From an uncultured Bacilli bacterium (GTDB lineage: Bacteria > Bacillota_I > Bacilli_A > RF39 > UBA660): a stretch of 64,000 nt of DNA. The notes below the pieces were generated by a model, which ran no database searches, was not told the DNA's origin, and saw nothing but the letters and a program-made list of their open reading frames with translations. The position numbers were made by a program, and so were the translations under genes. Each line of letters begins with the position of its first letter. Position 1 is the stretch's first letter. The stretch is from assembly GCA_934098705.1 (NCBI GenBank), contig CAKOPC010000002.1:26990-90989 (forward strand), in the 5' to 3' direction. Below, piece after piece: positions 19,302 through 63,809 of the stretch.

Positions 19302-19325
19302 CAAAAGGTTAACTATTATTTTTTT
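19295..19325. terminator. Bidirectional intrinsic terminator between convergent gatD and a membrane protein gene
   Basis: 8-bp stem TAGTTAAC / GTTAACTA with a 5-nt loop, followed by TTATTTTTTT; lies in the 14-bp gap between convergent stops. Confidence 0.5.
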
Positions 19326-19999: not shown

Positions 20000-20017
20000 A
20001 AAGTCTGCTTAAAATTT

Positions 20018-21112
20018 TTAGAAATTTTTATGTTGTAAAAATCTTGGTATATCTATCTCACTTGGTTCAAAATTTCCGCCTTGACTTCCGTCATCATCAT
20101 CTGTATCATCTAAAGTAGTATCTCTTCTTGTTTGTGTTGTTACTCCCTCTTTATATAAATTGCCTGCATTTTTCTTCTTGTCAAAACCCGTTGCAATAAT
20201 AGTTACAATAACTTCATCATTTAAATTTTCATTAATTACAGAACCAAATATAATATTAATATCTGTATTAGATGCAGCACGTACAACTTCAACTGCTTGT
20301 TCTGCCTCAAATAATGTAAGATTTGCCCCTCCTGTTATATTAATAATAGCATCTGTTGCTCCATGAATTGATGTTTCAAGAAGTGGAGATGAAACAGCTT
20401 GTCTTGCAGCTTCAATAGCTCTTTCTTCACCCATGCCAATACCAATACCAATAATAGCATTACCTGCTTTTTCCATGACTGTTCTAATGTCTGAAAAATC
20501 AAGGTTAACAAGTCCAACAACTGCAATTAAATCAGATATTGACTGTACGCCACGAAGAAGTACATTATCAACCTCTTTAAAGGCATCAAGCATTGGTGTT
20601 GATTTATCAATTATTTCTCTTAATCTATCATTTGGAATAACAATTAAAGTATCAACATGTTTTTTTAACTCTTCAATACCATATGTTGCATTATCCATTC
20701 TCTTTTTACCTTCAAATGAGAAAGGACGTGTTACAATACCAACAGTTAGAGCACCTTGATTTTGAGCTATTTCCGCTATTATTGGAGCAGCACCAGTTCC
20801 TGTTCCACCGCCCATTCCGCAAGTTATAAATACCATGTCAGCTCCTTTTAGAGCCTCTTCTATTTCCTTTTTGGCTTTTATAGCAGTTTCTTTTCCAATT
20901 TCAGGACGTGCTCCCGCACCAAGACCTGTTCCTAACTGAATCTTTTTCTCTGCTTTTGAAGCTGTTAAAACTTGTGAATCTGTATTTACAACAATAAATT
21001 CAACCCCTCTTACACCAGCATCAATCATTCGGTTAACAGCGTTACCACCGCCGCCTCCTACTCCAACAACTTTAATTTTTGCTAACTGATCCATCATCGA
21101 TAAATCAAACAT
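20018..21112 (-). CDS. ftsZ: Cell division GTPase FtsZ
   Basis: 364 aa. Tubulin signature [24 protein letters not shown]-terminal motif, acidic disordered C-terminal tail. Confidence 0.95.
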
Positions 21113-22347
21113 TACTTATCATCTCCTTCAAATATCTTAAAGACCTTACCTAAAACTCCAACAGACGTAACTTTCTTTCTGGCATCAAGCATCTCTTCTA
21201 TTTTATCTTCACTAAGCATCGTATACTCTTTATCTCTCATTTTTAATTTTTCATTAAAATATTTTATCATGCCATAACAAGCAGCATATCTATTTTCTCT
21301 AATACCAATAATACCCAAATGGATTACTGAAGAATTTCTAGCAAATAACTCCTCCGCTATCGCATCAAAACCTAACATTGAAGTTATACCACCACTTATA
21401 ATTATATAACCTATTTCACGATTTGTTAAGTTATTTATCTCATTTTTTACTTTTTTTAGTATTTCAACACATCGTGATTCTATAATTTGAGAAAGATCAT
21501 ACTGATTTATATTAATCTTTTCTCCTACCCTATTTATACAAGTATAAACTTCATCACTATCAGCATACTTTCTATTACTAACAGCAAACTCTTCCTTTAT
21601 TTTTTTAGCATCATCTACTTTATAGTTAAAAGCAATATCTTCATCAATATTACGTCCACCCATAAGCATTATCTTTTCTTTTATCATTATACCCTTATTA
21701 AATATAGCAAGTTTTGTTGTTTCATCTCCAATATCTATTAAAGCAACAACTTTATTATCTAAATCAGGTGTTTTAACAGAGTAATAATTACCAACTGATG
21801 AAAATACAATATCTATAACATCTAAATTTAATGATTCTATAATAGAAGCTACAGAATAGACGTTTTTCTTTGGTACAGATGATGCAACTGCTTTAACTTC
21901 TAACTTTTTACAAGTTATATTAAAAGGGTCCTTTATTACAGTATTATCTGCCCTATATTCAATAGGCATAACGGATACAACTTCGTATCCTTCTTTTACA
22001 TTGTTTTTTAAAGCATTTTGTAAACAACTAAATATTACTTCACCTGTTACTTTATTATTATCTTCCGGAAGATTTACATTACCAGATACAATATCAAAAG
22101 TAACATTTGTTGATGGCACTATAGCAAGTACCTCAGTTATTTTAGTACCAAGATTACTTTCTATCTCTTTTATTCCTTTTTTTATAGCACTACTTACTTT
22201 AGTAGCATCAATAATAAGTCCTTGTTTCACACCTTGTGATGGTACTATACTTCGTGCCAAACAATTATATTTATGATTAAAATATTCTAAACAAACAATT
22301 TTTATGGTATCAGTACCTATATCTATACTAGTAAATATCTTTCTCAT
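21112..22347 (-). CDS. ftsA: Cell division protein FtsA (actin-like ATPase)
   Basis: 411 aa. Actin-fold N-terminus ([15 protein letters not shown]), immediately upstream of ftsZ with 1-bp overlap. Confidence 0.85.
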
Positions 22348-38309: not shown

Positions 38310-38324
38310 ATTTTTACTTCCTTC

Positions 38325-39002
38325 CTACCTAACTTTAATTTTTCTTTTTTTATTTAAAACATCTTCCATATAAATAAGTTCATCTTCTGTAAAACCATGA
38401 AGATTTTTATTCATAACATTATTACTTAATCTAAAATTTTGTATATAATAAGGTGTTTCTTTTTTAAACATATCATTTATTTCTAAAATATCAAAAATAG
38501 TATGATATTCTTTTATAACAGTAGTTCTAAATTCATGTAAAACATTAGAGTCTTCAAGTATTTTTATACTTTGCATTATCTTATCTGTATTAATATTAAC
38601 GCCCGTTACCATACTATATTTTGCAAGTGTTTGTTTAATATCCATTGCTACATAATCTAGTAAATTACTATCAATCAAATCTTTTAACATAACAGGATTA
38701 TATCCGTTAGTATCAAGTTTAACTTTATAACCCATATCCTTTATTTTTTTTATAAACTCTTTTAAATCCTTATGTATCGTAGGCTCTCCTCCAGTTATTA
38801 CAACGCCTTCAAGAATACCTTTTCTTTTTTCTAAATACGAAAATACCTTATCCATTTCTAAAGTGTCATCATCTAAATTATTTATAAGACCACTATTTTG
38901 ACAAAAAGGACACTTAAAATTACATCCTTTAGTAAATATTATACAAGATAAAGTATCTGGGAAATCCAAAAGAGTTACCTTTTGCATTCCTGCAATCTTC
39001 AT
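38325..39002 (-). CDS. nrdG: Anaerobic ribonucleotide reductase activating protein (radical SAM)
   Basis: 225 aa; radical SAM cluster motif CNFKCPFCQN, GGEPT glycine-rich motif; directly upstream of nrdD. Confidence 0.85.
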   Translation of the reverse strand: MKIAGMQKVTLLDFPDTLSCIIFTKGCNFKCPFCQNSGLINNLDDDTLEMDKVFSYLEKRKGILEGVVITGGEPTIHKDLKEFIKKIKDMGYKVKLDTNGYNPVMLKDLIDSNLLDYVAMDIKQTLAKYSMVTGVNINTDKIMQSIKILEDSNVLHEFRTTVIKEYHTIFDILEINDMFKKETPYYIQNFRLSNNVMNKNLHGFTEDELIYMEDVLNKKRKIKVR

Positions 39003-40864
39003 GTACTATCACCAACCTTAAAAGCAACAAGTCCAAAACCTAAATCATTTAAACTCTTTATAGTATTTATAATATCTTTATCACTTGCTATATTAATAGA
39101 GGTTAAATACCCACCATTTAAATATTTATTATAAATACTAACACTATCTAATTTTTTTAGATTGTTAAATTCTATTATATTTTTATAACAATCTATATCT
39201 TTTAACATATTACTATATATTGTTTTATCAATATTAACAAAGTAATTAGTAGCATCTTCAAAGTATGCAAAACTTAATTTAAAATCAAGTTTTAAAGAAT
39301 CAGTATACTTATAAAGCCATGTTTTTATATATTTTAAAATTCTATCTTGTGATACCAAATCCTTTTCTATATCAAGAAATTTTATCATTTCAAGAAACCC
39401 TGAAAGATTAATAACTAATATACCATTTTTTATTATTTTTCTTATTTTTTGACCCTTTTCAAGTCTTTCATCATCATAGATATTACCATTAAAAAGTACT
39501 TTGTAATTATCTTTTGTTTTATCACCTAAAGTTTCAAGTACAACATCAAGTTCACATTTTATATTCTCTAAAGTTTCTAAAAGTTCACTGTAAAAAGCCT
39601 TATTTAACTTTCTATACTTTAATCCTAATCTTGCCATATTTAAAGATGTAACAGCAAGTACCATATTATTTTTACTTTCTAAACATATACCATTACTAAA
39701 ATATAAAGTATTGTTACTATAATTTAATTTAATATTTCTATTTATTTTTATTAAAGTTGCAACTCTTTCTAACATAGCATAACTATTTAATAAATAATTA
39801 TTAACATTAAATATAAAACATATATTGTTATATGAATTATTCTCTATAATTTTTAAAATATAATTTAAAATAATGTTATTATCTTTAAAACTTAAATTAA
39901 ATGTATATTTATAATTAAAATATGTATTATTAATACCATTAAATAACTGTTCCATATTGTTGTATAAGTCATTTAAAACTTCTGTTTTTGATAAAGATAA
40001 TGTTTTTAAAAATATATTATAAATATTATCATTTATCAAAAATTCATTAAATAACGATATAGAAGTATCAAAAGATGTTATTTTTGCTATAGTATCATCA
40101 AGTTTTTTAATATTTATAAATTCTAAAAATCCAAACATATTTAAATTTTGTTTTAATCTAATACTAAAATTCTCTTTATAAAAACAAATTGCTTTAGATA
40201 AAAATATATTGTCTATATCATTTACTAATATTTCTTGTGCTGTTTCTAAACTTGCTTTTGTAAGTGATAAATAAAGGTCTAAAATATAATTTTTTCCAAG
40301 TTTTAAAGGGTCAATTCTTAAATTTATATATTCTAAAAATCCTAAATTAAAGGAATCTAAATCATGAATATATATTTTTCCTTCATCATGAGCTCTTATA
40401 AATTTATTATCCATCACATATGATTTTGTATATGATGAAGATACAATTTTACCATATTTTAATAATGCCTTTGTGGGAGATAAGAATTTGGTATCTGCAT
40501 CCTCTAAATCCTGAGCTACTCTTACAAATTTATGTTGTTTTTTAAGTGTAAAAGCTCTTCTTGACTCATTTCTTCTATTACGATAACTATTAAATTCTTC
40601 ATATACATCAAAAAACTTAGCCTTTTTTAATTGTTCCTCAATTATATCCTGTATATCCTCAACATTAATTGTTTTTCTATCCTTATAATTTTCCATTATA
40701 AAACTCATAACATCCTCATATACTTTATTAGCATATGACTTATCATATTTATTTGGAAAAGCATCAAATGCATATTTTATAGCAATAGCTATTTTAAGTT
40801 CATTAAAAGAAACTCTTTGTCCACTTCTTTTTACAACAACTAAACTTTTACTTAAATTTTGCAC
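38999..40864 (-). CDS. Degenerate NrdD paralog: ATP-cone + class III RNR-like core lacking the C-terminal Zn-ribbon/glycyl-radical region
   Basis: 621 aa, GTG start. N-terminal ATP-cone (VVVKRSGQRVSFNELKIAIAI...INVEDIQDIIE). Core alignable to the adjacent NrdD (AHDEGKIYIHDL vs AHRDCTFHIHDL; VLAVTSLNMARLG vs IGVVTINMPRIAYL). No CC loop, no CxxC...CxxC, no RxxGY. Stop overlaps the nrdG start (ATGA). Confidence 0.6.
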   Translation of the reverse strand: MQNLSKSLVVVKRSGQRVSFNELKIAIAIKYAFDAFPNKYDKSYANKVYEDVMSFIMENYKDRKTINVEDIQDIIEEQLKKAKFFDVYEEFNSYRNRRNESRRAFTLKKQHKFVRVAQDLEDADTKFLSPTKALLKYGKIVSSSYTKSYVMDNKFIRAHDEGKIYIHDLDSFNLGFLEYINLRIDPLKLGKNYILDLYLSLTKASLETAQEILVNDIDNIFLSKAICFYKENFSIRLKQNLNMFGFLEFINIKKLDDTIAKITSFDTSISLFNEFLINDNIYNIFLKTLSLSKTEVLNDLYNNMEQLFNGINNTYFNYKYTFNLSFKDNNIILNYILKIIENNSYNNICFIFNVNNYLLNSYAMLERVATLIKINRNIKLNYSNNTLYFSNGICLESKNNMVLAVTSLNMARLGLKYRKLNKAFYSELLETLENIKCELDVVLETLGDKTKDNYKVLFNGNIYDDERLEKGQKIRKIIKNGILVINLSGFLEMIKFLDIEKDLVSQDRILKYIKTWLYKYTDSLKLDFKLSFAYFEDATNYFVNIDKTIYSNMLKDIDCYKNIIEFNNLKKLDSVSIYNKYLNGGYLTSINIASDKDIINTIKSLNDLGFGLVAFKVGDST

Positions 40865-51798: not shown

Positions 51799-52188
51799 TT
51801 AATCAATTTCAATTTTCTTTTTAGTGTCTACATTTTCCTTTTTAGGAACAATAACTCTTAACATACCATTGTTAAATTCTGCTTTAATAGAGTCTTCATT
51901 AGTGTCTCCAATATAGAATTGTCTCTTATAGCTTCCATAAACTCTTTCACGTCTTAAATATTTTTTACCTTCTTTTTCTTCATGTTTATGGCTAGATGTT
52001 GCAGTAATTGTTAAATATCCATTATCACAATCAATGTTTATATCCTCTTTCTTAAATCCAGGCACATCCATTTCAATATAATATTTATCGTCCTTTTCAT
52101 AAATATCACACTTCATGTTATTATTTTTAACCTCTGGTAAATCATCAAATAAATCATCTAAAAAGAAATTTCTTGGTACTAAATTCAT
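51799..52188 (-). CDS. Hsp20/alpha-crystallin family small heat-shock protein
   Basis: 129 aa. Alpha-crystallin domain (DIYEKDDKYYIEMDVPGFKKEDINID...GMLRVIVPK). Confidence 0.8.
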   Translation of the reverse strand: MNLVPRNFFLDDLFDDLPEVKNNNMKCDIYEKDDKYYIEMDVPGFKKEDINIDCDNGYLTITATSSHKHEEKEGKKYLRRERVYGSYKRQFYIGDTNEDSIKAEFNNGMLRVIVPKKENVDTKKKIEID

Positions 52189-52249: not shown

Positions 52250-52660
52250 GTGCTAAAAAAATTATTTTTTTTTACATACATTTATAGTATGAAACAAAAC
52301 AACAGAAATATACAACTTTTAAAAATAAATAAAGATGCCTTAATTCTTTTTATGGTAGCACTTATAATCTCTATTTATATAACAAACAATGATATTTTAC
52401 GCCTTGAAGGTAAAAGTAAAAAAGATACTTACACCCTTGAAATATTTAACAGATGCTTTGCAATTATTATCCTTTTAATTTTTCTATACACAAGTTATGA
52501 AAGTTATAAAATAGCTAAAAGTAATAATAAATATAATGAAACATTTACTATGCAAATTATCGTAGCTGTATTATCATTAATCGCAGGTATTATAGCATTT
52601 TATATAACATATATAAATAAAAATCAAAATATAAGTAGTGTATCAAATTTTGAAGTATAA
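52250..52660 (+). CDS. Hypothetical small membrane protein (3 TM helices)
   Basis: 136 aa; hydrophobic, no motif; true start may be the internal Met at ~52289. Confidence 0.35.
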   Translation: MLKKLFFFTYIYSMKQNNRNIQLLKINKDALILFMVALIISIYITNNDILRLEGKSKKDTYTLEIFNRCFAIIILLIFLYTSYESYKIAKSNNKYNETFTMQIIVAVLSLIAGIIAFYITYINKNQNISSVSNFEV

Positions 52661-52666: not shown

Positions 52667-53440
52667 CTAATATATCTGTTTTTTTATTCTAACTAAAGCA
52701 TTCTTTTCAAGCCTTGATATTTGAGCTTGTGATATACCAAGTTCATTTGAAATTTCCATCTGTGTTTTACCAACAAAATATCTATCTTCCAAAATCTGTC
52801 TTTCCCTACTTGTTAATTTGCTAATTGCCTTAGTAAGTGTCATATGTTCTAAATGATCGTAAGAACTTTTAGGGTCGCTTACTTGATCACATAGATATAT
52901 TGTATCTCCGCCATCATTATAAATTGGTTCAAAAAGACTAACTGGAGGTATTAAAGCTTCAAGTGCATTAATAACTTCCCTTTCCTTTATTTCCAAAATT
53001 TTAGCTATTTCTTCATTTGTTGGTTCCTTCCCATTTTCTAAAGTTAATTTTTCCTTTAATTTAAGTACTTTATACGCTGTATCTTTTACACTTCTTGATA
53101 CTCTAATACTTGTATTATCTCTAATATATCTTTTCACTTCTCCAAGTATCATAGGAACAGCATAAGTTGACAACTTTACATTTAAACTTGGATCAAAATT
53201 ATCTATGGCCTTTACAAGTCCAATACACCCAATTTGAAATAAATCATCCAAATTTTCATTGTAAGTTTTAAAATTTTTCAAAATAGACAAAACAAGTTTT
53301 AAATTTCCATTTATAAGTTCTTCCCTTGCTAATTTATCTCCTTGTTTCATTCTTTTAAACAAAACTTCCATCTCTTCCTGTTTTAAAACTTTTAAACTAC
53401 TTGTATTTATACCAGATATTAAAACTTTATATTTAGACAT
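52667..53440 (-). CDS. sigG: Sporulation sigma factor SigG (forespore-specific sigma-70 family)
   Basis: 257 aa; alignable along its length with Bacillus SigG as recalled: KVLISGINTSSLKVLKQEEM, GDKLAREELINGNLKLVLSIL, DDLFQIGCIGLVKAIDNFD, STYAVPMILGEVKRYIRDN, IRVSRS, PVSLFEPIYNDGGD, GKTQMEISNELGISQAQISRLEK. Confidence 0.85.
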   Translation of the reverse strand: MSKYKVLISGINTSSLKVLKQEEMEVLFKRMKQGDKLAREELINGNLKLVLSILKNFKTYNENLDDLFQIGCIGLVKAIDNFDPSLNVKLSTYAVPMILGEVKRYIRDNTSIRVSRSVKDTAYKVLKLKEKLTLENGKEPTNEEIAKILEIKEREVINALEALIPPVSLFEPIYNDGGDTIYLCDQVSDPKSSYDHLEHMTLTKAISKLTSRERQILEDRYFVGKTQMEISNELGISQAQISRLEKNALVRIKKQIY

Positions 53441-53570
53441 ATTTATATTCCTTTCAACCTTAATAATGAAAAAAGAATATAAATTTTATGCAAAATTAAA
53501 ACATTTTACCATTTTTTATTCAAACTATTAAAATGGCAAAAAATAACAAATCTATAATTTATTAAAAAAA

Positions 53571-54760
53571 AGGTTTAACAAAAACTTTACAAGTATTTAT
53601 TAACCTTCTTTATCTCTTCATTAAGATTACTTTTTAATATATAATCTTTAAATCCATCTTCAATGTATTTTGAAACTAAAAACTTTTTATCATCATTAAT
53701 AGTTATTAATACTGGTGTTTTAAATTTTTTTATAGTTTGTAATTTCTTTAAAGTATCATATCCACTTTGAAGCCCCATCTCATCATCCACTATTATCATG
53801 TCATACTCTTCCCCATTTTTTATCTTCTCTATCGCACCTTTTCCATATAATACCATTGTTACATCTATACCAAGTTTTATTAATTGTTCCTCCATCTGTT
53901 TGGCTTCGTTTAGTTTTTCGTTTACTATTAATATTTTTCTTTTTCCTCTTGTATCTATTTGATTAAAATTTATTTTATCTTTATTTTCTTTTATTTTTTG
54001 GTCTATTATTATTAGGTACTCACTACCTTTATTTATTTCACTTCTTACTATTAATGTTCCTCCAAGTACTTTTATTATCTTATTTGCCATTTCTATTCCA
54101 ACATCTACTTTATCAAGTTTTTTAAAGTCTTCTTGTTCCATATAACTTGCACTTAATATCCTATTTACTTTCTCTATTGTCATACCACATCCTGAATCAC
54201 TTATTGATATTATTAATCTACATACATCATATTTTACTATGGAATTAACTTTTATTTCTATAAAACCTTTTTTTGTCTGCTTTAATGAATTATTTAATAT
54301 ACTAATTAACACTTGCTTTAATTTTACTTTATCACCATAAAGTTTGGCATCTATTAAATCTGTATAATTTGTTCTTAATTCAACATCACCTTGTATCTCT
54401 TCCTTTACTCTTTTTTCTATCTCTTTAAATAATAGTTTTACATCATAAAATCCAAGAGCCAATTTTATATTTGATATATCCATATTTGATATATCAAACA
54501 CATTATTTGCCAGAAGCATTAATTCTTTAGAACTTATATTTACTTGTTTTGCCATTTCTTTTAAGTTATCTTTATTATTTTCACTTATCATAAGATTACT
54601 TATATCTTGAATATTTTTTATTGGTTCCTTAGTTTTTTGTTGTAACTCAAATAATAAATTTAATTTTTCTTCATTTGTCTTTTCAATTAGTTTTCTATTT
54701 TCATTTAACGTTTCAATAACCTTTACATCTGGATTTTCTATTGTATGATACATAATAAAA
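53571..54760. repeat. Large direct repeat, copy 1 (~1.19 kb; 3' two-thirds of the hybrid kinase gene plus 16 bp of 3' flank)
   Basis: Near-identical to 57561..58750 (offset 3990 bp). Identity runs from AGGTTTAACAAAAACTTTACAAG just past the stop to ...CTTTACATCTGGATTTTCTATTGT at the TM/cytoplasmic boundary, with scattered substitutions (roughly 95% by eye). Confidence 0.8.
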
Positions 54761-55386
54761 GCAATAAATATAAGTACTGGATTTATCAAATAATTTAATG
54801 TAGGGTCAATAATCATCACAATAAGTATAGATATACCAAGTATTACAAGTACATAAACTGGAATATATTTTTTACTTTTTATATTTTTATAATTTAAAAG
54901 CACACACACAATTTGTGTAATAAGTCCAAGTCCAAATATAAAATATGTATACATAACAGAAATACCTTTAGATGTCGCAGCACTATTAGGATTTATAGTA
55001 ACTTCAATAGGAAATATTAAAACAACTAAAATACTAAAGATTCCCAAAATATAAAATATATTTTCTATCTGCCTCAATTTATCTTGTTTTTTTAAAGAAA
55101 CATATAAAATATAAAATGTAAATATAAATACCCATAAAAGAAGTCCAATTAAATAAAGTTTATTAAATAATGATACAACAAAAACACTACTTGTAACTTT
55201 TGAACTAACATATATACCAAGTAAAATACCACTGCAAGACATAAATATATTGGCAAGTAAAAACAGTGAATATAGATTATCTTCCATTTTCTTTAATCTC
55301 GGTTTGTTAAAAAACAGTATTGCAACTGCAATTATTACTAATAGTGCATAAAAATTAATACTTAAAAAACCTAAAACATTTTCCAT
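53587..55386 (-). CDS. Polytopic sensor histidine-kinase-like / receiver hybrid protein, copy B (no His at the H-box position)
   Basis: 599 aa. ~7 TM helices, DHp-like helix, HATPase_c (N-box LISILNNSLKQTKKG, G1 ISDSGCG, G2 GIEMANKIIKVLGGTL), C-terminal REC (DMIIVDDEMG ... VLITIND ... DYILKS). The canonical HE.RTP position reads FELQQKTKEP. Confidence 0.7.
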   Translation of the reverse strand: MENVLGFLSINFYALLVIIAVAILFFNKPRLKKMEDNLYSLFLLANIFMSCSGILLGIYVSSKVTSSVFVVSLFNKLYLIGLLLWVFIFTFYILYVSLKKQDKLRQIENIFYILGIFSILVVLIFPIEVTINPNSAATSKGISVMYTYFIFGLGLITQIVCVLLNYKNIKSKKYIPVYVLVILGISILIVMIIDPTLNYLINPVLIFIAFIMYHTIENPDVKVIETLNENRKLIEKTNEEKLNLLFELQQKTKEPIKNIQDISNLMISENNKDNLKEMAKQVNISSKELMLLANNVFDISNMDISNIKLALGFYDVKLLFKEIEKRVKEEIQGDVELRTNYTDLIDAKLYGDKVKLKQVLISILNNSLKQTKKGFIEIKVNSIVKYDVCRLIISISDSGCGMTIEKVNRILSASYMEQEDFKKLDKVDVGIEMANKIIKVLGGTLIVRSEINKGSEYLIIIDQKIKENKDKINFNQIDTRGKRKILIVNEKLNEAKQMEEQLIKLGIDVTMVLYGKGAIEKIKNGEEYDMIIVDDEMGLQSGYDTLKKLQTIKKFKTPVLITINDDKKFLVSKYIEDGFKDYILKSNLNEEIKKVNKYL

Positions 55387-55422
55387 ATAACACTAACCTT
55401 CTTTTTATCCATTTTTATTCTT

Positions 55423-57402
55423 TTATTTTCTTTTTCTAACTAAATCTTTTGTTTCATTTTGATAAATATCTATGGTAGATGTAGAAAGATTTGTTTCCGC
55501 TACAACAACATTAACAATATCATCATCTGTTAAATCATCTTTTCTTAATGAAACAAAATCCATCTTTCCATTTTTAGTTTGTGGAATAGAAGTTCTAAAT
55601 TTAAATTTTGATGGAATTTGTCTTGATGACATATCTTTGTTTGCTAAAATATCATTATAAACAATATCATTAACAACACTTATATAATCTTCATTTTTAT
55701 ACTCATCATTTAAAACAATATGACAAGCTGGCATTAAACCTCTTCTTTTTTCATCAAAATATTCAACAATACATACATATTTAACTTTTTCATTTTTAGC
55801 TATTTCTTTTTCAACTTCATATGGTTTTATTTTATAACCATCAAATCTTGCAAAAGATCTATCTTTTCTTGATTTATGATAGAATTTTCCTTCTTCATCC
55901 ATTTCCACTAAATCTCTTGTTCTAATATATGTCTTTCCATCAAGTTCATATTGTGGAATAATAACATTTTCATCTAAAACACCTTTTGTTACATTATCTC
56001 CAGATACAGCAAGTTCTCCAAAAGTTCTACCATTATGATTTATAGGAACTCTAACAAGTCTATCTTCAATATTTGGGTCAACTAATGTAAAGTCAGTGTG
56101 AGGAAGTGGTATTCCAATACATTCATAATCATTATAAGCACCTTGTGCATAAGAACCGCAACCAAAGAACTCACTCATACCATAACCCTTAGTTACAGTA
56201 CAAGAACTACCATGTTTTCTAAAGAATTTATTTAATTCCTCTTCATCCTTTGCAGTCATAGTATCTCCACCATAAATAGCAACCTTTACACAAGATAAAT
56301 CTTCACCCTCTAAATAATCACAAGTTGTAAGTGAATGTAATAGTGATGGTGAAATCATAATTACATTTGGATGATATTTTTTTATTAAATATCCAAATTC
56401 ACTTATCTCAAACTCTGGAACATCAATGTTATTAGCAAGGCTTGTCAAATTCATTAAATAATTATTATAAGCTCCAAATGGTGCAAAAAATGGTAAAACA
56501 TGAAGTGCTGTATCACCCTCATCAAAATTTACAAGTCCTTGTTTTAACTGTTCTAATGTTGATATAGCATTTTTATGTGTTCCAGGTATTGGTTTTGGTC
56601 TTGTACCACTTGTACCTGATGTATGTCCTATATATTGTAAACCATCTAAATTTCTATAAACAGTAAAACGTGAATTTTGAACGTTTCTTTTTAAATCATC
56701 ATAAAACATTATATTTAGTTTTGAAGAAGCCATAGCATCATTTAAAGTACCCTCTTGTTGTTTCATCATTTGCACTTTTTCAAGTAATGCTTGATACCAT
56801 TTTAACTTATTAATATTATCTAAAACATGTCTTTTATTTTTTAAATCATTATAATTAATGACATCTTTCATATAACTAATTTTTCCACCAAGATTCATAG
56901 AATCAGTAGCTCTTAAAAGAACAACATCACGTATTCCATATGATAAAAGTTCTTCTTCTACTGGTTTTATCATCGCCATATAACACATATCAAGAGCAAC
57001 TATATATTTTGGATGTTCAAATTTTACTATTTCAAGTAACTTATTTCCATTAGCTTTAGCATCCATACTATCTGGTCTTGGATCGATAAAATCAGATACT
57101 GCTCCAATTTGAGCAGAACCAAGCCATAATTCTCCTACTTCTGGAATATTTGGAACTAAATATAAAATTCTATCTCCAACTCCAACACCCATTTCAGTAA
57201 GTACTCTAGATGCTTTATCAGCATTATAAAATAATTCTCCATAAGAAGTTTCCTTGCCATAATAAGTTTCTGCTGTTAAATCTTTCTTATTTCTTGCTAT
57301 ATTTTCTAAATATTTTTTAATGTTTAAATCAACATAATTTTGTCTTTCTATTGGATAATTTTTATAAAAATTCATCCAAGGCATATTTTCATTTTTATTC
57401 AT
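55423..57402 (-). CDS. Adenylate-forming enzyme (AMP-binding / ANL superfamily), copy B
   Basis: 659 aa. AMP-binding core motif YIGHTSGTSGTRPKPIPGTHKN (T[SG]GT.G.PK), a second Gly-rich motif, C-terminal domain; substrate unknown. Confidence 0.75.
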   Translation of the reverse strand: MNKNENMPWMNFYKNYPIERQNYVDLNIKKYLENIARNKKDLTAETYYGKETSYGELFYNADKASRVLTEMGVGVGDRILYLVPNIPEVGELWLGSAQIGAVSDFIDPRPDSMDAKANGNKLLEIVKFEHPKYIVALDMCYMAMIKPVEEELLSYGIRDVVLLRATDSMNLGGKISYMKDVINYNDLKNKRHVLDNINKLKWYQALLEKVQMMKQQEGTLNDAMASSKLNIMFYDDLKRNVQNSRFTVYRNLDGLQYIGHTSGTSGTRPKPIPGTHKNAISTLEQLKQGLVNFDEGDTALHVLPFFAPFGAYNNYLMNLTSLANNIDVPEFEISEFGYLIKKYHPNVIMISPSLLHSLTTCDYLEGEDLSCVKVAIYGGDTMTAKDEEELNKFFRKHGSSCTVTKGYGMSEFFGCGSYAQGAYNDYECIGIPLPHTDFTLVDPNIEDRLVRVPINHNGRTFGELAVSGDNVTKGVLDENVIIPQYELDGKTYIRTRDLVEMDEEGKFYHKSRKDRSFARFDGYKIKPYEVEKEIAKNEKVKYVCIVEYFDEKRRGLMPACHIVLNDEYKNEDYISVVNDIVYNDILANKDMSSRQIPSKFKFRTSIPQTKNGKMDFVSLRKDDLTDDDIVNVVVAETNLSTSTIDIYQNETKDLVRKRK

Positions 57403-57474
57403 AAAACAACCACCTCTAATAAAAAATTTTGTCTGTTAGTATATCACAATTTTATAATAAATTATAAAACATGG

Positions 57475-57512
57475 CATATTCGGTTAAAATAGCACCATAT
57501 TCTGCAAATATA
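57475..57512. promoter_or_regulatory. Doubled operator-like motif upstream of adenylate-forming enzyme gene B
   Basis: GCATATTCGGTTAAAATA (57474-57491) and CCATATTCTGCAAATATA (57495-57512), 21 bp centre-to-centre, 73-110 bp upstream of the ATG at 57402. Matches the motif pair at 61459-61498. Confidence 0.45.
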
Positions 57513-57560
57513 CCCCTCTTTTTTCTATAAATAATATATCATATAAAATAAAAAAAAGAA

Positions 57561-58750
57561 AGGTTTAACAAAAACTTTACAAGTATTTATTAACCTTCTT
57601 TATCTCTTCATTAAGATTACTTTTTAATATATAATCTTTAAATCCATCTTCAATGTATTTTGAAACTAAAAACTTTTTATCATCATTAATAGTTATTAAT
57701 ACTGGTGTTTTAAATTTTTTTATAGTTTGTAATTTCTTTAAAGTATCATATCCACTTTGAAGCCCCATCTCATCATCCACTATTATCATGTCATACTCTT
57801 CCCCATTTTTTATCTTCTCTATCGCACCTTTTCCATATAATACCATTGTTACATCTATACCAAGTTTTATTAATTGTTCCTCCATCTGTTTGGCTTCGTT
57901 TAGTTTTTCGTTTACTATTAATATTTTTCTTTTTCCTCTTGTATCTATTTGATTAAAATTTATTTTATCTTTATTTTCTTTTATTTTTTGGTCTATTATT
58001 ATTAGGTACTCACTACCTTTATTTATTTCACTTCTTACTATTAATGTTCCTCCAAGTACTTTTATTATCTTATTTGCCATTTCTATTCCAACATCTACTT
58101 TATCAAGTTTTTTAAAGTCTTCTTGTTCCATATAACTTGCACTTAATATTCTATTTACTTCCTCTACTCCAATACCACATCCTGAATCACTTATTGATAT
58201 TATTAATCTACATACATCATATTTTACTATAGAGTTTACCTTTATTTCTATAAAACCCTTTTTAGTTTGTTTTAATGAATTATTTAATATACTAATTAAT
58301 ACTTGTTTTAATTTTACTTTATCGCCATAAAGCTTGGCATCTATTAAATCTGTATAATTAGTCCTTAACTCAACATCACCTTTTATCTCTTCCTGTACTC
58401 TTTTTTCTATTTCTTTAAATAATAGTTTTACATCATAAAATCCAAGAGCTAACTTTATATTTGATATATCCATATTTGATATATCAAATACATTATTTGA
58501 TAAAAGCATTAATTCTTTAGAACTTGTATTTACCTGTTTTGCCATTTCTTTTAATTTCTCTTTATTATTTTCATTTAACATAAGATTACTTATATCTTGA
58601 ATATTTTTTATTGGTTCTTTAGTTTTCTGTTGTAACTCAAATAATATATTTAGCTTTTCTTCATTTGTTTTATCAATTAGTTTTCTATTTTCATTTAATA
58701 TTTCAATAACCTTTACATCTGGATTTTCTATTGTAAAATACATAATAAAT
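57561..58750. repeat. Large direct repeat, copy 2
   Basis: See copy 1. Similarity ends abruptly where the N-terminal sensor-domain coding regions begin. Confidence 0.8.
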
Positions 58751-59364
58751 AAAACAAAAGATTCAGTAACCGTAATCATTGTAAAACCTGGATATATTTT
58801 TTGAATTACTGAAGCAACACCAAGTCCTACAATTAAAACAATAAGTGGTAAATATTTTCTTATTTTTAATGATTTATAATTTTTTGCCATAAAATAAATA
58901 CTTACAACTATAGAAATTAATGAAGCAACATAAGTTGCAACAATAGATGGCCCTTTAGAATACATATATTTATCAATAACTATATTAAGAGGAAGCACAA
59001 TAATTAATACTGAAAAGATAGAGGTGAATATCAAAATATAATTTGAAATTCTTTTTTCATGTATTTCATAGTTTTCATTTCCTAATGAAACACATATTGC
59101 ATATTTTAAAAACAAAGTACAAAAGAAAAGTAAATACAATAAGTAAGACTTATTAACTAATAAATTAAAGAAACTATCTGGATTTGAGTACAAACCATTA
59201 TAAATACATAAAAGTTCAATTAAAAGTCCAAATATATTTAAACTAAGAAGATTATTAAATATATTAAGTTCGTAAGAATCAATGTGTTTCTTTTTCTTAT
59301 ACATAAATGTCAAAACAATAATGTATAAAAGACTCATAATTAAAAAGTGAGAACTATTATTCAT
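57577..59364 (-). CDS. Polytopic sensor histidine-kinase-like / receiver hybrid protein, copy A (no His in the DHp region)
   Basis: 595 aa. Divergent N-terminal 6-7 TM sensor region; from FTIENPDVKV onward nearly identical to copy B, with the last ~230 aa identical. The only His of copy B's linker (HTIENP) is Phe here. Confidence 0.7.
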   Translation of the reverse strand: MNNSSHFLIMSLLYIIVLTFMYKKKKHIDSYELNIFNNLLSLNIFGLLIELLCIYNGLYSNPDSFFNLLVNKSYLLYLLFFCTLFLKYAICVSLGNENYEIHEKRISNYILIFTSIFSVLIIVLPLNIVIDKYMYSKGPSIVATYVASLISIVVSIYFMAKNYKSLKIRKYLPLIVLIVGLGVASVIQKIYPGFTMITVTESFVLFIMYFTIENPDVKVIEILNENRKLIDKTNEEKLNILFELQQKTKEPIKNIQDISNLMLNENNKEKLKEMAKQVNTSSKELMLLSNNVFDISNMDISNIKLALGFYDVKLLFKEIEKRVQEEIKGDVELRTNYTDLIDAKLYGDKVKLKQVLISILNNSLKQTKKGFIEIKVNSIVKYDVCRLIISISDSGCGIGVEEVNRILSASYMEQEDFKKLDKVDVGIEMANKIIKVLGGTLIVRSEINKGSEYLIIIDQKIKENKDKINFNQIDTRGKRKILIVNEKLNEAKQMEEQLIKLGIDVTMVLYGKGAIEKIKNGEEYDMIIVDDEMGLQSGYDTLKKLQTIKKFKTPVLITINDDKKFLVSKYIEDGFKDYILKSNLNEEIKKVNKYL

Positions 59365-59425
59365 GAAATTACACTTCCTTTATTTTACAAGTAAATTATA
59401 TCACAAAGTCAAAAAAAAGAAAATC

Positions 59426-61390
59426 TTATTTCGTTAAGATTCTCTTCATTTCTTTTTTATCTTTATTATTTTTTAAATCTTCGTAAGAATTATAAACATC
59501 TCTTGCTAAAACACACTTATTAGAAATACCTTCCTCAATTAAAGCTAAAAAGCTTCTTTTTAGAGTTGGAGATATAACAAATGATTCTTTATTATCTCTT
59601 ACTCTAAAATATAATTTATCTAAAACATCTGCTCCAAAAGCTTTAACACATCTATTTAATGCTGAATATAAAACTTTATCTTTATCAAATGAAACATTAA
59701 TTTGTGGTTCAATATGAGCTACATATTTTACATTACCATTATCATTTACAGTTACAACTTCACAAGACATAATCTTTTTAGTATCTTTTAAAATTTCATT
59801 AGCTATTTTATAATTTGGAATATTTCCATCTCTATTACTTATTCTACCCTTTACATAAATATGTGAAAACTTATCAATATAACCATATACATTTAAGTTA
59901 GCCCAAGTTTTTCCATAAGCATCTTTAATAAAGAACGCCTTATCTCCTTCTTTATTATTTACATAACCTTCCATAGTACATGGTGAATTAGCAACAAGAT
60001 TACCTGGTTCCATAAAATCACAATATGTACCATCTTTCCTTAAGGCTTTTATATTAACCATTCCATATGTTGACATACCAACAGGTTCTTTTATACCAAA
60101 ATTTTTAAATAATTTAGTCTGCAAAGCTCTATACATTGTAATAAAAATACCACCATGCTCAGAGTCCCCCCCTGCTATACTCATACATACAACAGATGTT
60201 GGAAGTTTTATAATATCACGTCCTGCATCAAGACTTCTAAGCCATTTATTTAGTACTTTTTCTTCATTTGCATCAAGACCTTCACCAATACACATAGGGC
60301 ATATTAAAAACGGAAGTTTAATATTTTTATATCTAGGATCCCACATTTGTTTTTTCATATTATAAATAAATACTGATCTTGAAGTTAAAAATACATTAGG
60401 TTTATTAATTAAAAGTGATTCGAATATAAAATCTTTATCGTTTATAGGTTCAAGAGCAACTATACCACTTTGCATAGCAACATCACTTACTCCAGACATA
60501 AAATCAGTATCAGACATTGTTCTAACTAAAGATAACATAACCATACCCTTCATAGATGGTATTTTAGATATTTCACTATCATGATATCTTCCCATAGTAA
60601 TATAACTTCTTACTCTATGAACTAATCCTTTTGGTTTATTTGAAATAGTAGAACCACTTGTATAAGTTGTTGTAAAGTCGCTATCAAGTGTTGTTACATC
60701 ATAAATTTCTCCCTTTACATTATCACCCTTAGTCAAAAATTCATCAAATGACATAATATTATCAAATGAAGATAAAGTATCATTATAAGATTTTTCATCC
60801 AATTTATAAAATTTATCAGTTATTTGAGCATATGGATTGCCATTTTTTAATGAATGATTAAGTGGAATAGGAATTATTGTTTTAGGAACCTCTAACATCT
60901 TTAACGTTTCACTAAATGAAACAAAATTCTTATCACTTACAAATATTAAATTAGATGTTGCATTATCAACAATATTTTTTAAATATTCATGATCCATATC
61001 TGCTGCTAAAAGATTAACTCTAGCACCAATTATACTTGCAGCACCCATTATAAATGGAAATTCAGGTGTATTTTCAAGACAACATACAATTTCCTCTCCC
61101 TTTTTTACACCATTTGCCTTCAATGCTTTAGCATACTTATATGAATAAGCAAAAAAATCTTTATAAGAAAAATTAGTACCTCTATATTTTATATAAGGTG
61201 CCTCCAAATTATTTTTATTTCTTTCCCATACTTCTTTAATCCAAGACCAATTATGATTTTCATCAATATCTTTTAATATTTTTTGATTTTTCTTATTACA
61301 ATCACTACTATCATAATAATTATTATTTGGCATGCTCTTAACTTTTTCTATTTCTAAAACAAAATTTTTAAACAATTCTTCATTTTTCAT
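59426..61390 (-). CDS. Adenylate-forming enzyme (AMP-binding / ANL superfamily), copy A (divergent paralog of 55423..57402)
   Basis: 654 aa. AMP-binding core motif YTSGSTISNKPKGLVHRV; similar length and domain order to copy B but strongly diverged in sequence. Confidence 0.7.
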   Translation of the reverse strand: MKNEELFKNFVLEIEKVKSMPNNNYYDSSDCNKKNQKILKDIDENHNWSWIKEVWERNKNNLEAPYIKYRGTNFSYKDFFAYSYKYAKALKANGVKKGEEIVCCLENTPEFPFIMGAASIIGARVNLLAADMDHEYLKNIVDNATSNLIFVSDKNFVSFSETLKMLEVPKTIIPIPLNHSLKNGNPYAQITDKFYKLDEKSYNDTLSSFDNIMSFDEFLTKGDNVKGEIYDVTTLDSDFTTTYTSGSTISNKPKGLVHRVRSYITMGRYHDSEISKIPSMKGMVMLSLVRTMSDTDFMSGVSDVAMQSGIVALEPINDKDFIFESLLINKPNVFLTSRSVFIYNMKKQMWDPRYKNIKLPFLICPMCIGEGLDANEEKVLNKWLRSLDAGRDIIKLPTSVVCMSIAGGDSEHGGIFITMYRALQTKLFKNFGIKEPVGMSTYGMVNIKALRKDGTYCDFMEPGNLVANSPCTMEGYVNNKEGDKAFFIKDAYGKTWANLNVYGYIDKFSHIYVKGRISNRDGNIPNYKIANEILKDTKKIMSCEVVTVNDNGNVKYVAHIEPQINVSFDKDKVLYSALNRCVKAFGADVLDKLYFRVRDNKESFVISPTLKRSFLALIEEGISNKCVLARDVYNSYEDLKNNKDKKEMKRILTK

Positions 61391-61458
61391 ACATTATTCC
61401 CCCTTAACAAAAGTTAACTGCTATTATAACACTTTAATAAAAAAATTTCAAATTAAAG

Positions 61459-61498
61459 CCATATTCTGTCAAAATAAGGTCGCATTCTGTCAAAAATA
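61459..61498. promoter_or_regulatory. Doubled operator-like motif in the divergent intergenic region (adenylate-forming enzyme gene A <- -> radical SAM gene)
   Basis: CCATATTCTGTCAAAATA (61459-61476) and CGCATTCTGTCAAAAATA (61481-61498), 21-bp period, 70-108 bp upstream of the ATG at 61390. Consensus with the 57.5-kb copy: ATATTCTGtcAAAATA. Confidence 0.45.
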
Positions 61499-61584
61499 AT
61501 CTTTAATTTACAAATATATAATAACATTATCTAAATAAAAATTCAAATAAATATGTTATAATAACTAAAAAAGGTGATGTTTTT

Positions 61585-62478
61585 ATGGAAAAAGAATTTT
61601 TAAACTGCAATCTATGTCCTAGAAATTGTAATATAAATAGATATGAAACATTAGGTTTTTGCATGGCTCCCCCTAAAATAAAAATAGCAAAAGCAGACTT
61701 ATTCTTTTATGAAGAACCTTGTATTTCTGGTAGTAATGGTAGTGGTGCTATATTTTTTTCACACTGCAATTTAAAATGTATATTTTGTCAAAATTATGAA
61801 ATATCAACAAATAATATAGGGAAAGAAATAACTATAGATAAATTTAGTGATATTATGATTAATCTTCAAAATAAAGGGGCACTAAATATAAATTTAGTAA
61901 CACCAACTATGTATATACCATTAATTAAAAAAGGAATTATAAAAGCCAAAGAAAAAGGTCTTAATATACCTATTATATATAATACAAGTGGTTATGAAAA
62001 TGTTGAAGCTTTAAAAACACTTGATGGACTTATTGATGTATATCTTCCTGATTTTAAGTATTATAATGATAATCTTGCTTATAAATATTCAAATACAAAA
62101 AACTATAAAGAAACTGTTAAAAGTGCAATAGAGGAAATGTACAAACAAACAGGTAAAATAACATTTGATAAAAATGGCATAATTAAAAAAGGCGTTATTG
62201 TAAGACACTTAATGCTTCCTAATATGGAAGATGATTCTAAAAAAATTATCGAATACTTGTATAAAAAATACAAAGATAATATCTTTTTAAGTATAATGAA
62301 CCAGTATACTGTAATAAAACCTTTAAAGTATGAAGAATTAAATAAAACTATAGAGGAAAAAGTATATGATGATGTAATAAACTATGCTTATGACCTTGGC
62401 ATACGTAATGCTTATATTCAGGAAGGTGGAACACAAAAAAAGAGCTTTATTCCTGATTTTAAAAATCAAGAATTCTAA
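61585..62478 (+). CDS. Radical SAM protein with N-terminal Cys-rich extension (PflX-like / putative glycyl-radical-enzyme-activase-like family)
   Basis: 297 aa. N-terminal C.LCPR.C...R.....G.C pattern (CNLCPRNCNINRYETLGFC) followed by radical SAM CxxxCxxC (HCNLKCIFCQN); RBS AAAGG upstream. Confidence 0.65.
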   Translation: MEKEFLNCNLCPRNCNINRYETLGFCMAPPKIKIAKADLFFYEEPCISGSNGSGAIFFSHCNLKCIFCQNYEISTNNIGKEITIDKFSDIMINLQNKGALNINLVTPTMYIPLIKKGIIKAKEKGLNIPIIYNTSGYENVEALKTLDGLIDVYLPDFKYYNDNLAYKYSNTKNYKETVKSAIEEMYKQTGKITFDKNGIIKKGVIVRHLMLPNMEDDSKKIIEYLYKKYKDNIFLSIMNQYTVIKPLKYEELNKTIEEKVYDDVINYAYDLGIRNAYIQEGGTQKKSFIPDFKNQEF

Positions 62479-62529: not shown

Positions 62530-63143
62530 TTATGGCATATAGTATGTTTTTGTTCCACTTTTAAGATCAAATATTATAGAACCATACTTACTTGTTTCAA
62601 AATATGTTAAATTAAGCTTATTTAAACTATCAATAGTTTCCTTTGAAGGATGATTATATTTATTATTAAAAGATGCAGATATGATGGAATATTTAGGATT
62701 TGTTACCCTTAAAAAATCATAAGAACTACTCGTATTTGAACCATGATGTGCTAACTTTAAAATATATAAAGAAGATAAATCATAATTATTAATTAAATCC
62801 TCTTCAACACTTTTAGGTATATCCCCAGTAAATAGCATCTTTTTATTATACATATTTAAATATAAAACAATACTTGATGAGTTTTCATCATTATTATTTT
62901 TATTCAAACTATATAATTTTATACCATTAAAATCAATTATATTACCTTTATATAATTTTTTAACTGGTATTTTTTTAAACTTGATGCCTTAATAAGTTTA
63001 TTTTCCAAATAATTTAGCTTATTACTGTTAATATATATGTTATCTATTTTAAAATTATTAACCAAATAAATACTATCTCCCATATGATCATAATCTCCAT
63101 GTAGTTGTTGTAAAAAAGTAAGTCGAATAAAAAGAACTATCAA
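62530..63143 (-). pseudogene. Remnant of a ComEC/Rec2-type metallo-beta-lactamase domain, split into two ORFs and lacking the N-terminal channel domain
   Basis: ORF 63143..62937 carries LHGDYDHMGD (HxHxDH). ORF 62907..62530, in a different frame, carries MLFTGDI ... KLAHHGSNTSSS ... NKYNHPSKETI, typical of the ComEC C-terminal MBL domain. An A7/T7 homopolymer at 62961-62967 lies in ORF 1 (63143..62937), ~25 nt before its stop, i.e. upstream of the frame break on the minus strand. Confidence 0.5.
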
Positions 63144-63161: not shown

Positions 63162-63809
63162 CTATAATTTTTTATTTTTTTGTGATTGTTTGACTGTTTC
63201 AAATATGTGATTTGCATCTTGCTTTAACAAATCTGGATTCTTAACGTATTCTAACAATTTTTCTTTAGAATAATTTTCTAGCATGTATTTTCCTAAAGTA
63301 TATGAGTAACTATACCCGTTTTCTGTTCCATTAAAATCACTTTTTAATTTTTCAAAATCACAATATTCTAAACTAACTGGTGAATAATCTTGATTACTTA
63401 GATTAGTTGCCAATGCTTCCCAATACCAACTAACACCCTTAGAATTTTCATTCCACTCTTGCTGACATGAATGCACAAACTCATGTAGTATGCATTTTAT
63501 AAATTCTTCCATATCCATATCTTCATGTTCTTTAGATTTTCTTGCTTCAGACATTTCTAACAAGTTAATATTACCATCATATGTATCAGCACACATCCAT
63601 TCTTTAAATTCTTTTACAAATGGCAACAAATGTTTCTTGTATTTTTCTCTATCAGTAAAAATCACTACTTTCTTTTTTTGAGAAAGTTTTTCAAGTTCAA
63701 AAAATTCTAAAATTTCAATGGTATTGTTTTCTAATGTTGAAATTATATTTGACATATAATCAATCTCTTTGTCATATTCAATAGTAAAATTACTAAGTTC
63801 GATTTTCAT
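63162..63809 (-). CDS. Hypothetical protein with HExxH zinc-metallopeptidase-like motif
   Basis: 215 aa; ILHEFVHSCQQEW ... WEALA suggests a gluzincin-type HExxH...E arrangement; no further family assignment possible. Confidence 0.4.
   Translation of the reverse strand: MKIELSNFTIEYDKEIDYMSNIISTLENNTIEILEFFELEKLSQKKKVVIFTDREKYKKHLLPFVKEFKEWMCADTYDGNINLLEMSEARKSKEHEDMDMEEFIKCILHEFVHSCQQEWNENSKGVSWYWEALATNLSNQDYSPVSLEYCDFEKLKSDFNGTENGYSYSYTLGKYMLENYSKEKLLEYVKNPDLLKQDANHIFETVKQSQKNKKL

Follow-up and report, generated by a model that had tools for sequence, protein, structure and literature searches.

A conserved pairing of adenylate-forming enzymes with predicted seven-transmembrane histidine pseudokinases in gut Bacilli

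In the Rpf/DSF (diffusible signal factor) system of Xanthomonas, a polytopic membrane hybrid kinase, RpfC, perceives a fatty acid, and a fatty acyl-CoA ligase, RpfB, is encoded in the cluster. The receiver of RpfC binds RpfF independently of phosphorelay, and RpfF and RpfC variants co-vary (PMC4504480). RetS of Pseudomonas aeruginosa joins a seven-transmembrane (7TM) input to a degenerate ATP-lid/G2 region and acts through protein–protein contact without a phosphorelay of its own; DivL of Caulobacter (PMC9430884) and PsmA of Streptomyces (PMC12963549) have kinase architecture without the H-box His and serve as scaffolds or regulators by contact; and in Aas and FadL–FadD vectorial acylation, adenylate-forming enzymes of the ANL superfamily and PlsC-type acyltransferases re-use exogenous fatty acids. 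Here we describe two consecutive two-gene modules that resemble these systems in part. They lie in a 64,000-nt stretch of DNA from an uncultured Bacilli bacterium of the RF39 lineage (contig CAKOPC010000002.1 of assembly GCA_934098705.1, forward-strand positions 26,990–90,989), the whole of which we call the window, and each encodes an ANL enzyme followed by a 7TM protein with a kinase-like cytoplasmic tail:

59426..61390, minus strand: ANL1, divergent adenylate-forming enzyme of 654 aa, first gene of module 1
57577..59364, minus strand: HK1, the second gene of module 1, a predicted 7TM pseudokinase of 595 aa that ends in a receiver
55423..57402, minus strand: ANL2, adenylate-forming enzyme of 659 aa, first gene of module 2
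53587..55386, minus strand: HK2, the second gene of module 2, a predicted 7TM pseudokinase of 599 aa that ends in a receiver

These four open reading frames (ORFs) lie exactly where the original prediction, made from the sequence before this analysis, had placed two minus-strand pairs of an ANL gene followed by a membrane hybrid gene. Gaps of 61 and 36 bp separate the genes within the pairs, 174 bp separate the pairs, and 146 bp lie between HK2 and the sporulation sigma-factor gene sigG.

The pairing of an ANL enzyme with a kinase homologue is a conserved module. More than 100 proteins of about 600 aa match HK1 over its full length at 35–50% identity, and their names are uninformative (the few that are named read 'response regulator [Bacilli bacterium]'). 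A scan of one genome per species recovered at least 588 loci, of which the best 80 were analysed with flanks of 6–10 kb and 78 had room upstream. Counting as partner the gene that ends 12–305 bp before the kinase homologue, we found an ANL enzyme in 61 of these 78 loci, a PF01553 PlsC-type acyltransferase in 12 (with an ANL gene just ahead of the acyltransferase in 3) and a zinc-phospholipase-C-like protein in 3, the last a weak assignment (E 0.003, below cutoff); the partner in the other 2 went unassigned. Distant homologues on long contigs (37–50% identity, four unrelated contexts) likewise had a same-strand AMP-binding gene directly upstream in all four cases. A reciprocal test gave the same adjacency from the enzyme side: metagenomic relatives of ANL2, retrieved with an alignment of ANL2 orthologues and thus covering the ANL2 rather than the ANL1 lineage, had a strong kinase-family match directly downstream at 55 of the 66 loci with room for one, and still did so in 10 of 12 at 30–38% ANL identity, with the exceptions being mostly longer enzyme arrays that run off the retrieved DNA. 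The two-gene module proposed in the original prediction is therefore real, and the circumstance that would have undone it, two gene families never adjacent elsewhere, is the opposite of what we see, as adjacency recurs widely.

Arrays of these modules vary in composition. The ANL–HK–ANL–HK layout of the window recurs in six of the analysed loci (L001, L014, L027, L040, L045 and L049), alongside mixed ANL–PlsC–HK, PlsC–ANL–HK and ANL–HK–PlsC–HK arrays and several unlinked copies per metagenome-assembled genome (MAG). Beyond the paired genes, unbiased clustering of the neighbours of the 80 loci placed no family in more than about 10 of them, and there was no Hpt protein, no DNA-binding regulator and no enriched response-regulator family among these neighbours.

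The amino-terminal half of the kinase homologues is a membrane domain:

58717..59364, minus strand: HK1 7TM domain, residues 1–216, GPCR-like fold with a beta-hairpin between TM4 and TM5
54727-55386, minus strand: HK2 transmembrane (TM) domain

The original prediction of a membrane sensor with six or seven helices holds, with the number settled at seven in the AlphaFold 2 model (predicted local distance difference test, pLDDT, 89.8). In this model TM1 begins at residue 2 and the sole extracytoplasmic element is a hairpin of about 12 residues; the window proteins have no N-terminal extracytoplasmic DISMED1/2 domain. Searching residues 1–235 against 1.84 billion representatives returned 803 clusters, nearly all of about 600 aa with the domain N-terminal, indicating that the TM domain is specific to this 7TM–tail architecture. 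No known Pfam TM sensor family reaches threshold; the only recurrent weak match is 7TMR-DISM_7TM (PF07695), in 4 of 28 TM domains with a best E of 0.0069 and none in the window copies. The seven-helix bundle can be superposed on the TM domains of G-protein-coupled receptors (GPCRs), and its fold resembles receptors, not transporters. To the GPCR-like lipid sensors of eukaryotes (LYCHOS/GPR155) the likeness is at fold level only, with 5–17% sequence identity and no common motifs, and the output in the window is a kinase-derived tail rather than a G protein or DEP domain.

We took the N terminus to lie outside, since TM7 runs into the cytoplasmic tail and residues 162–172 form a strongly basic loop. 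On that assumption the cytoplasm-facing half of the bundle is more conserved than the outer half (Mann–Whitney p = 0.004), and HK1 and HK2 are 36% identical inside versus 23% outside. The exit of TM7 carries an invariant M-Y-F-T-I-E-N-P-D motif (58717–58743 in HK1, 54727–54753 in HK2); its position invites comparison with the NPxxY motif of class A GPCRs, though only as an analogy. Other invariant positions across the protein are K25, Y88, G138, P173, P192, TIENPD and DxGxG.

The cytoplasmic half has the domain order of a hybrid histidine kinase:

57982..58716, minus strand: DHp-like hairpin (residues 217–292) and CA-like domain (about residues 305–461) of HK1, from AlphaFold 2 secondary structure
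57580..57930, minus strand: receiver-like domain of HK1, residues 479–595, of which Pfam Response_reg covers 481–590
58627..58629, minus strand: codon of Gln246 in HK1, the H-box phospho-acceptor position by alignment to the RetS and HK853 structures
54637-54639, minus strand: codon of Gln250 in HK2, the same H-box position

HATPase_c (residues 347–458 in HK1) and Response_reg exceed their Pfam cutoffs in both HK1 and HK2, as had been predicted, and the full-length model of HK1 has a pLDDT of 81. The predicted DHp-like helix is also present but lacks the phospho-acceptor His, and HisKA has no Pfam match in either protein. Across the family the H-box consensus is F-L-F-K-I-S-Q-E-V-K-x-P: the phospho-His column holds Gln in 101, Gly in 14 and His in 1 of 118 members, and in an independent genome-derived set it holds Gln in 50, His in 12, Gly in 5 and Asn in 4. 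The 12 His-type members have textbook motifs (FLSNMSHEIRTPLNAIV, LLTNAVKYT, DTGIGI, an F-box and GTGLGLAITK). In Gln-type members, HK1 and HK2 included, the His, the F-box and the G2 box are lost together; where His-type members read GTGLGLAITK at the G2 position, the window copies read KLDKVDVGIEMANK. The receivers diverge in parallel. Those of the window have N485–E486 instead of the DD pocket, with D530 and K581 present and the Thr/Ser not conserved, and the combination of DD pocket, phospho-Asp and Lys is found in 12 of 12 His-type members versus 17 of 52 Gln-type members.

From these sequence motifs we conclude that HK1 and HK2 are predicted histidine pseudokinases derived from a genuine hybrid kinase family. 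Their lost catalytic residues make a phosphorelay output unlikely, and the kinase-type signalling of the original prediction is not borne out, as Gln replaces the phospho-His, neither the F box nor the G2 box remains and the DD pocket of the receiver reads N-E. It is accordingly highly improbable that they are ordinary hybrid sensor kinases that autophosphorylate and control a FadD-type operon through phosphorelay. Such a protein would fit the above-cutoff HATPase_c and Response_reg matches, the intact N and G1 boxes (N362, D393, G395 and G397 in the window) and the canonical minority of the family, but the substitutions just described affect both window copies, neither HK1 nor HK2 contains an HPt domain (each ends with its receiver), and no HPt or regulator gene lies nearby.

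The same features separate the modules from the described systems. RpfC crosses the membrane five times, keeps a functional His and an HPt domain and works with its own regulator, RpfG, whereas the window proteins have seven TM helices, lack both the His and an HPt domain, and have neither a regulator nor a crotonase linked to them; RpfB, moreover, is not adjacent to rpfC in one operon, and the Rpf system belongs to another phylum. Among the neighbours of the analysed loci there is no recurrent RpfF- or RpfG-type gene, nor any recurrent neighbour besides ANL and acyltransferase genes, although crotonase and HD-GYP proteins were not searched for by name. Membership of the Rpf system thus fails on every structural point, so what we propose is that the modules work like it, not that they belong to it. 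RetS differs in having a periplasmic DISMED2 domain, an H-box His, two receivers and no acyl-activating enzyme partner. DivL and PsmA are cytoplasmic or polar proteins without a 7TM receptor or an enzyme partner, and the residue that replaces His varies in PsmA, whereas Gln is conserved in the family described here.

A possible but unlikely alternative draws on RetS and DivL directly: the ligand-bound, catalytically dead 7TM protein would heterodimerize with or otherwise control a live kinase, be it a His-type paralogue from the family or some other kinase, and thereby transcription, with the ANL enzyme turning the signal over as RpfB does. The RetS kinase domain is indeed the nearest solved relative of the cytoplasmic core (E 1e-15), the weak 7TMR-DISM_7TM matches (4/28, best E 0.007) are to the RetS/LadS module, the DHp dimerization hairpin is retained, the His-type subfamily has canonical, slowly evolving tails (63% mutual identity), and live and dead tails occur on the same TM types. 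Set against this, no live kinase, Hpt protein or response regulator is linked to the modules, the receiver Asp is kept in just 48 of 78 members, and a modulator of this kind leaves the near-universal enzyme gene of matching type beside each copy unexplained, even where a genome has several copies.

The enzymes themselves appear catalytically equipped. Both exceed the cutoff of 29.9 bits for Pfam AMP-binding (PF00501; 71.9 bits for ANL1 and 132.7 bits for ANL2), ANL2 also matches AMP-binding_C weakly, and both keep the A3 P-loop Lys, A5 Glu, A8 hinge Arg and A10 Lys, which are nearly invariant among module-linked ANL enzymes (59/60, 60/60, 60/60 and 59/60, respectively). Their best NCBIfam matches are long-chain fatty-acid–CoA ligase models, with all others further under cutoff. 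Some ANL proteins in the family are longer (776–987 aa); we considered them as Aas-like fusions of ANL to acyltransferase or carrier domains and rejected this, as inspection showed a degenerate second ANL N-terminal half or a HAD-like domain instead. Enzymes of 930–990 aa with a degenerate ANL N-terminal half ahead of a complete enzyme occur at 4162–6948 of L003, 2113–4908 of L018 and 2121–5084 of L030.

Other enzymes take the place of the ANL protein or are fused to it. A family of about 330 aa with weak, below-cutoff similarity to zinc-dependent phospholipase C replaces it at 4844–5821 of L063, 4928–5917 of L070 and 4829–5830 of L086, and is present at five loci altogether; it adjoins a His-type kinase in L063 and L086. 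An HAD/NT5C-like phosphatase domain is fused to the acyltransferase at 4320–5885 of L076 (Pfam), and by inspection a similar N-terminal HAD-like domain is fused to an ANL enzyme at 2680–5106 of L068. These HAD/NT5C-like fusions suggest a further lipid-remodelling step in some arrays.

Enzyme type and sensor type vary together. ANL1 and ANL2 are 29% identical over only 113 alignable residues and 18% identical in the family alignment, and HK1 and HK2, 74% identical overall, share 26.5% identity in the TM half versus 96% over 379 positions of the cytoplasmic half. The TM half of HK1 is closest to those of L009, L038 and L039 (44, 43 and 35% identity), which are loci with ANL1 orthologues (886, 852 and 380 bits, respectively). 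That of HK2 is closest to those of L067, L075, L014b and L061 (45, 45, 44 and 40%), which are loci with ANL2 orthologues (the ANL2 orthologues of L075, L088 and L067 score 806, 662 and 647 bits). The cytoplasmic halves do not follow this pattern. Over 64 modules, ANL identity correlated with TM identity (Spearman 0.25, Mantel 1/1000) and with tail identity (Spearman 0.19, Mantel 9/1000), while TM and tail identity within the same protein gave a Spearman coefficient of 0.02. For module pairs with ANL identity above 40%, TM identity rose from 30% to 48% and tail identity from 36% to 42%. The His-type members make the uncoupling plain: their tails share 63% identity with one another and 30% with other tails, versus 33% among themselves and 29% to others for their TM halves, and the nearest TM neighbour bears a dead tail for 9 of the 12. 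Because TM and tail relationships are uncoupled in this way, the protein is modular, with a sensor half that travels with its enzyme, a tail that is exchanged and an apparent crossover at the invariant ENPD junction. The original proposal that the paralogous pairs are specialized for different ligands or substrates looks right in this light, as TM type co-varies with ANL type and the cytoplasmic part is common to both.

Co-variation of this kind, together with obligate pairing with acyl-activating or acyl-transfer enzymes, a conserved cytoplasmic face and the numerous paralogous pairs within single genomes of lineages that reportedly lack type II fatty-acid synthesis (FASII), would also suit a vectorial acylation machine. 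In such a machine the 7TM bundle would not mainly be a sensor but would conduct or flip exogenous fatty acids, and the ANL enzyme, docked on the tail, would trap each incoming acid as acyl-AMP or thioester. We regard this as improbable, because the fold is receptor-like rather than transporter-like and at 12 of 78 loci this TM domain is coupled to a canonical kinase tail, as is typical of sensors. An Aas-like combination does exist in the family, as ANL–PlsC–HK or PlsC–ANL–HK arrays in L068, L073, L076 and L078. The window modules, however, have no acyltransferase, and ANL2 scores 73 bits on the Aas model against a cutoff of 1221. We know of no 7TM kinase-like partner in the known Aas or FadD systems.

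The near identity of the two tails has a recombinational origin. A direct repeat of 1221 bp at 95.5% identity (blastn), with a spacing of 3990, covers the cytoplasmic halves of both kinase homologues:

57529..58749, minus strand: repeat copy A, the HK1 cytoplasmic half plus 23–48 bp downstream
53541..54759, minus strand: repeat copy B, the HK2 cytoplasmic half plus downstream bases, with the conversion core at 53564–54159

DNA identity falls into three tiers, at about 50% in the TM-coding part, about 92% from 58749 to 58150 and 100% from 58149 to 57554, and the fully identical core of 596 bp extends 23 bp beyond the stop codon. The same tandem layout, with intact ORFs and strain-specific variants, is present on 23 contigs from independent human-gut samples, which shows that it is not an assembly artefact. 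We compared three further strains (L089–L091) with the window, numbering positions in nucleotides upstream of the stop codon. Differences between the strains are confined to the final ~600 nt of the two kinase genes, with none in ANL2 or the TM halves. Six substitutions at positions 189–111 of L089 are present in both of its copies. At positions 595–574, HK1 differs from HK2 in the window and in L090, while the two copies agree in L091, where both are of the HK2 version, and largely in L089, where both are mostly of the HK1 version.

The identical cores thus evolve in concert, through gene conversion that is ongoing, runs in both directions and has polymorphic tract ends. Recent tandem duplication, considered as the cause, is contradicted by the three-tier identity, the strain-specific substitutions common to both copies and the polymorphic tract ends. 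The divergence pattern on which the original prediction drew, with diverged enzymes and sensors joined to near-identical cores, stands, but its reading of those cores as a sign of common output is not supported: the identity is a product of recombination and by itself is no evidence of a shared output. The M-Y-F-T-I-E-N-P-D motif is both the 5′ boundary of the conversion tract and the family-wide break in the co-evolution of TM domain and tail, and it may be a recombination junction.

These data also bear on whether the kinase-like genes are functionless remnants, similar through recent tandem duplication. The loss of catalytic motifs and the relaxed conservation of receiver residues in Gln-type members are what decay would produce. 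Decaying duplicates are nevertheless barely credible here, as the ORFs are intact on 23 contigs, hundreds of full-length homologues have invariant motifs, the Gln is itself conserved, and the identity tiers and strain polymorphisms are those of conversion between old paralogues.

In our judgement the chances are about even that each module is a ligand-matched sensor–enzyme pair for lipid acyl metabolism with a phosphorylation-independent output. The variable outer half of the 7TM bundle would recognize a lipid or a hydrophobic carboxylate, with a fatty acid the likeliest candidate, and the co-encoded soluble ANL enzyme would activate molecules of that class. With the catalytic residues of the tail lost, the dimeric DHp–CA–receiver tail and the conserved cytoplasmic face would act by protein contact, recruiting, scaffolding or allosterically gating the ANL enzyme at the membrane, much as the RpfC receiver binds RpfF. 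The two pairs of the window would then serve two different substrates, with interchangeable tails that gene conversion holds identical. We infer here the lipid nature of the ligand, the direct contact between sensor and enzyme and the direction of regulation.

Several observations weigh against such a pair. ANL–TM co-variation exceeds ANL–tail co-variation only modestly (Spearman 0.25 versus 0.19). The best NCBIfam model, NF004837, has a cutoff of 476 bits and is far from reached by either enzyme (156 bits for ANL2, 71 bits for ANL1), and the closest solved relatives, 4-coumarate–CoA ligase, DltA and FACS, are distant and score low; we infer a lipid substrate from the PlsC-type and phospholipase-C-like alternative partners, from the organisms and from weak family resemblance. 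Fully canonical kinase tails are joined to the same TM types at 12 of 78 loci, which argues that the TM domain truly serves as an input for signals, and even the dead versions could still pass their output to a network of kinases. Moreover, the N-box Asn is kept in 70 of 78 members and the G1 box DxGxG in 77–78 of 78 despite the dead tails, a pattern of residues that hints at a nucleotide-dependent function outside a scaffold model. This conservation of the N and G1 boxes is the ground for an extension of the sensor–enzyme pair that we consider quite unlikely, in which the GPCR-like bundle would bind or let in a particular exogenous fatty acid, while the tail keeps only an adenine-nucleotide pocket and reads or hands over ATP, AMP or acyl-AMP together with the docked ANL enzyme. 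Vectorial acylation would then be gated directly, and the modules would be the main lipid route of fatty-acid-auxotrophic gut Bacilli like RF39, with one pair per lipid class.

Going by record titles, nearly all hosts are MAGs of uncultured gut bacteria labelled 'Bacilli', 'Tenericutes' or 'Mycoplasmatota', some of them complete chromosomes of 1.2–1.5 Mb. RF39 has been reported to lack any fatty-acid synthesis and to depend on exogenous fatty acids (PMC6784871), and sporulating and non-sporulating species are mixed in the orders RF39, RFN20 and ML615J-28 (PMC10868615). The organism of the window recurs in human-gut samples and encodes sigG, a CwlD/LysM protein, FtsA/Z and NrdD. A few modules come from bins with other titles. 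Bacilli-like low-GC modules occur in Muribaculaceae-titled bins at L010, L034, L044, L052, L068, L079, L081 and L084; together with L027, L029 and L075, these bins are titled Muribaculaceae, Bacteroidaceae, Vescimonas or Paratractidigestivibacter. The odd titles probably reflect mis-binning or mislabelling, not a true range in those taxa.

The surroundings of the modules in the window appear incidental. Downstream, sigG (52667–53440) scores above the NCBIfam equivalog cutoff (374.7 versus 372), and a radical SAM gene identified by Pfam (61585–62478) is divergent from the module. The original prediction treated both as meaningful neighbours. No sigG lies near any of the other loci, more than 80 in number; L077 has a sigma-like ORF, but it is unrelated and on the other strand. 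Outside the window, the radical SAM gene is confined to L001, the close relative with conserved synteny, and, at a different position, to 2 of 80 other loci (L056 and L060). With no conserved recurrence, we take both adjacencies to be incidental. None of the four module proteins matched a PADLOC anti-phage defence family, which speaks against a defence-system identity. Terminator and promoter scans gave no usable signal in the AT-rich DNA of the region, where sigma-70-like promoter matches occur at shuffle expectation; the best one upstream of ANL1 is a consensus match only:

61423..61451, minus strand: sigma-70-like match upstream of ANL1, TTGAAA-17-TATAAT with a TG extension, 11/12

Other genes of the window are noted here for completeness. 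An Hsp20 gene (51799–52188, minus strand) lies just past sigG, and at 7 other loci an Hsp20 homologue is likewise found no more than 5 kb from the module. Convergent to sigG is a predicted membrane ORF of 136 aa (52250–52660, plus strand) without a Pfam match, where a gene is also called in L089–L091. Tandem NrdD-like genes occupy 35988–40864 on the minus strand: a full anaerobic ribonucleotide reductase (35988–38309, 1139 bits) and a second, divergent gene (38999–40864, 621 aa) with weak N- and C-terminal NrdD matches only, separated by a radical SAM activase-like gene (38325–39002). Upstream of the modules, a 125-aa ORF with a TTG start (62530–62907, minus strand) and no Pfam match resembles the C-terminal part of the 695-aa ComEC of L001 (45% over 106 aa, E 1e-25); since the ORF upstream of it (63162–63809) is unrelated, comEC looks truncated in this genome. 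Lastly, sigG lies about 31 kb from ftsA–ftsZ (19316–22347), and the gene after ftsZ encodes an ABC_trans_CmpB-family membrane protein rather than spoIIGA or sigE, so the ftsAZ–spoIIGA–sigE–sigG arrangement usual elsewhere is not intact in the window.

Each component alone is of a kind already known: 7TM sensor kinases, histidine pseudokinases and ANL enzymes. A literature search found no description of the family or of the pairing, although its coverage was incomplete and such an absence is not proof. What appears undescribed is that a kinase-derived receptor with a GPCR-like 7TM domain is almost obligately paired with an enzyme of acyl activation or acyl transfer, that His has given way to Gln across the family with coordinated loss of the F and G2 boxes, that a given receptor type can bear either a live or a dead tail, and that the family has expanded in gut Bacilli with reduced genomes.

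The family is large: species-representative genomes contain at least 588 loci, clustering at 50% identity yields about 800 groups, and no source names the proteins. Uncultured small-genome gut Bacilli such as RF39 are common in people and reportedly lack fatty-acid synthesis, and the modules may bear on how they acquire and sort membrane lipids. If the pairs are ligand-matched units, they would provide gene candidates for the handling of exogenous lipids and hence for the growth factors needed in culturing these organisms. They would also represent a natural conversion of a histidine kinase into a non-phosphorylating receptor tail, with live and dead versions that can be compared, and a clean case of domain shuffling and gene conversion at one invariant junction motif.

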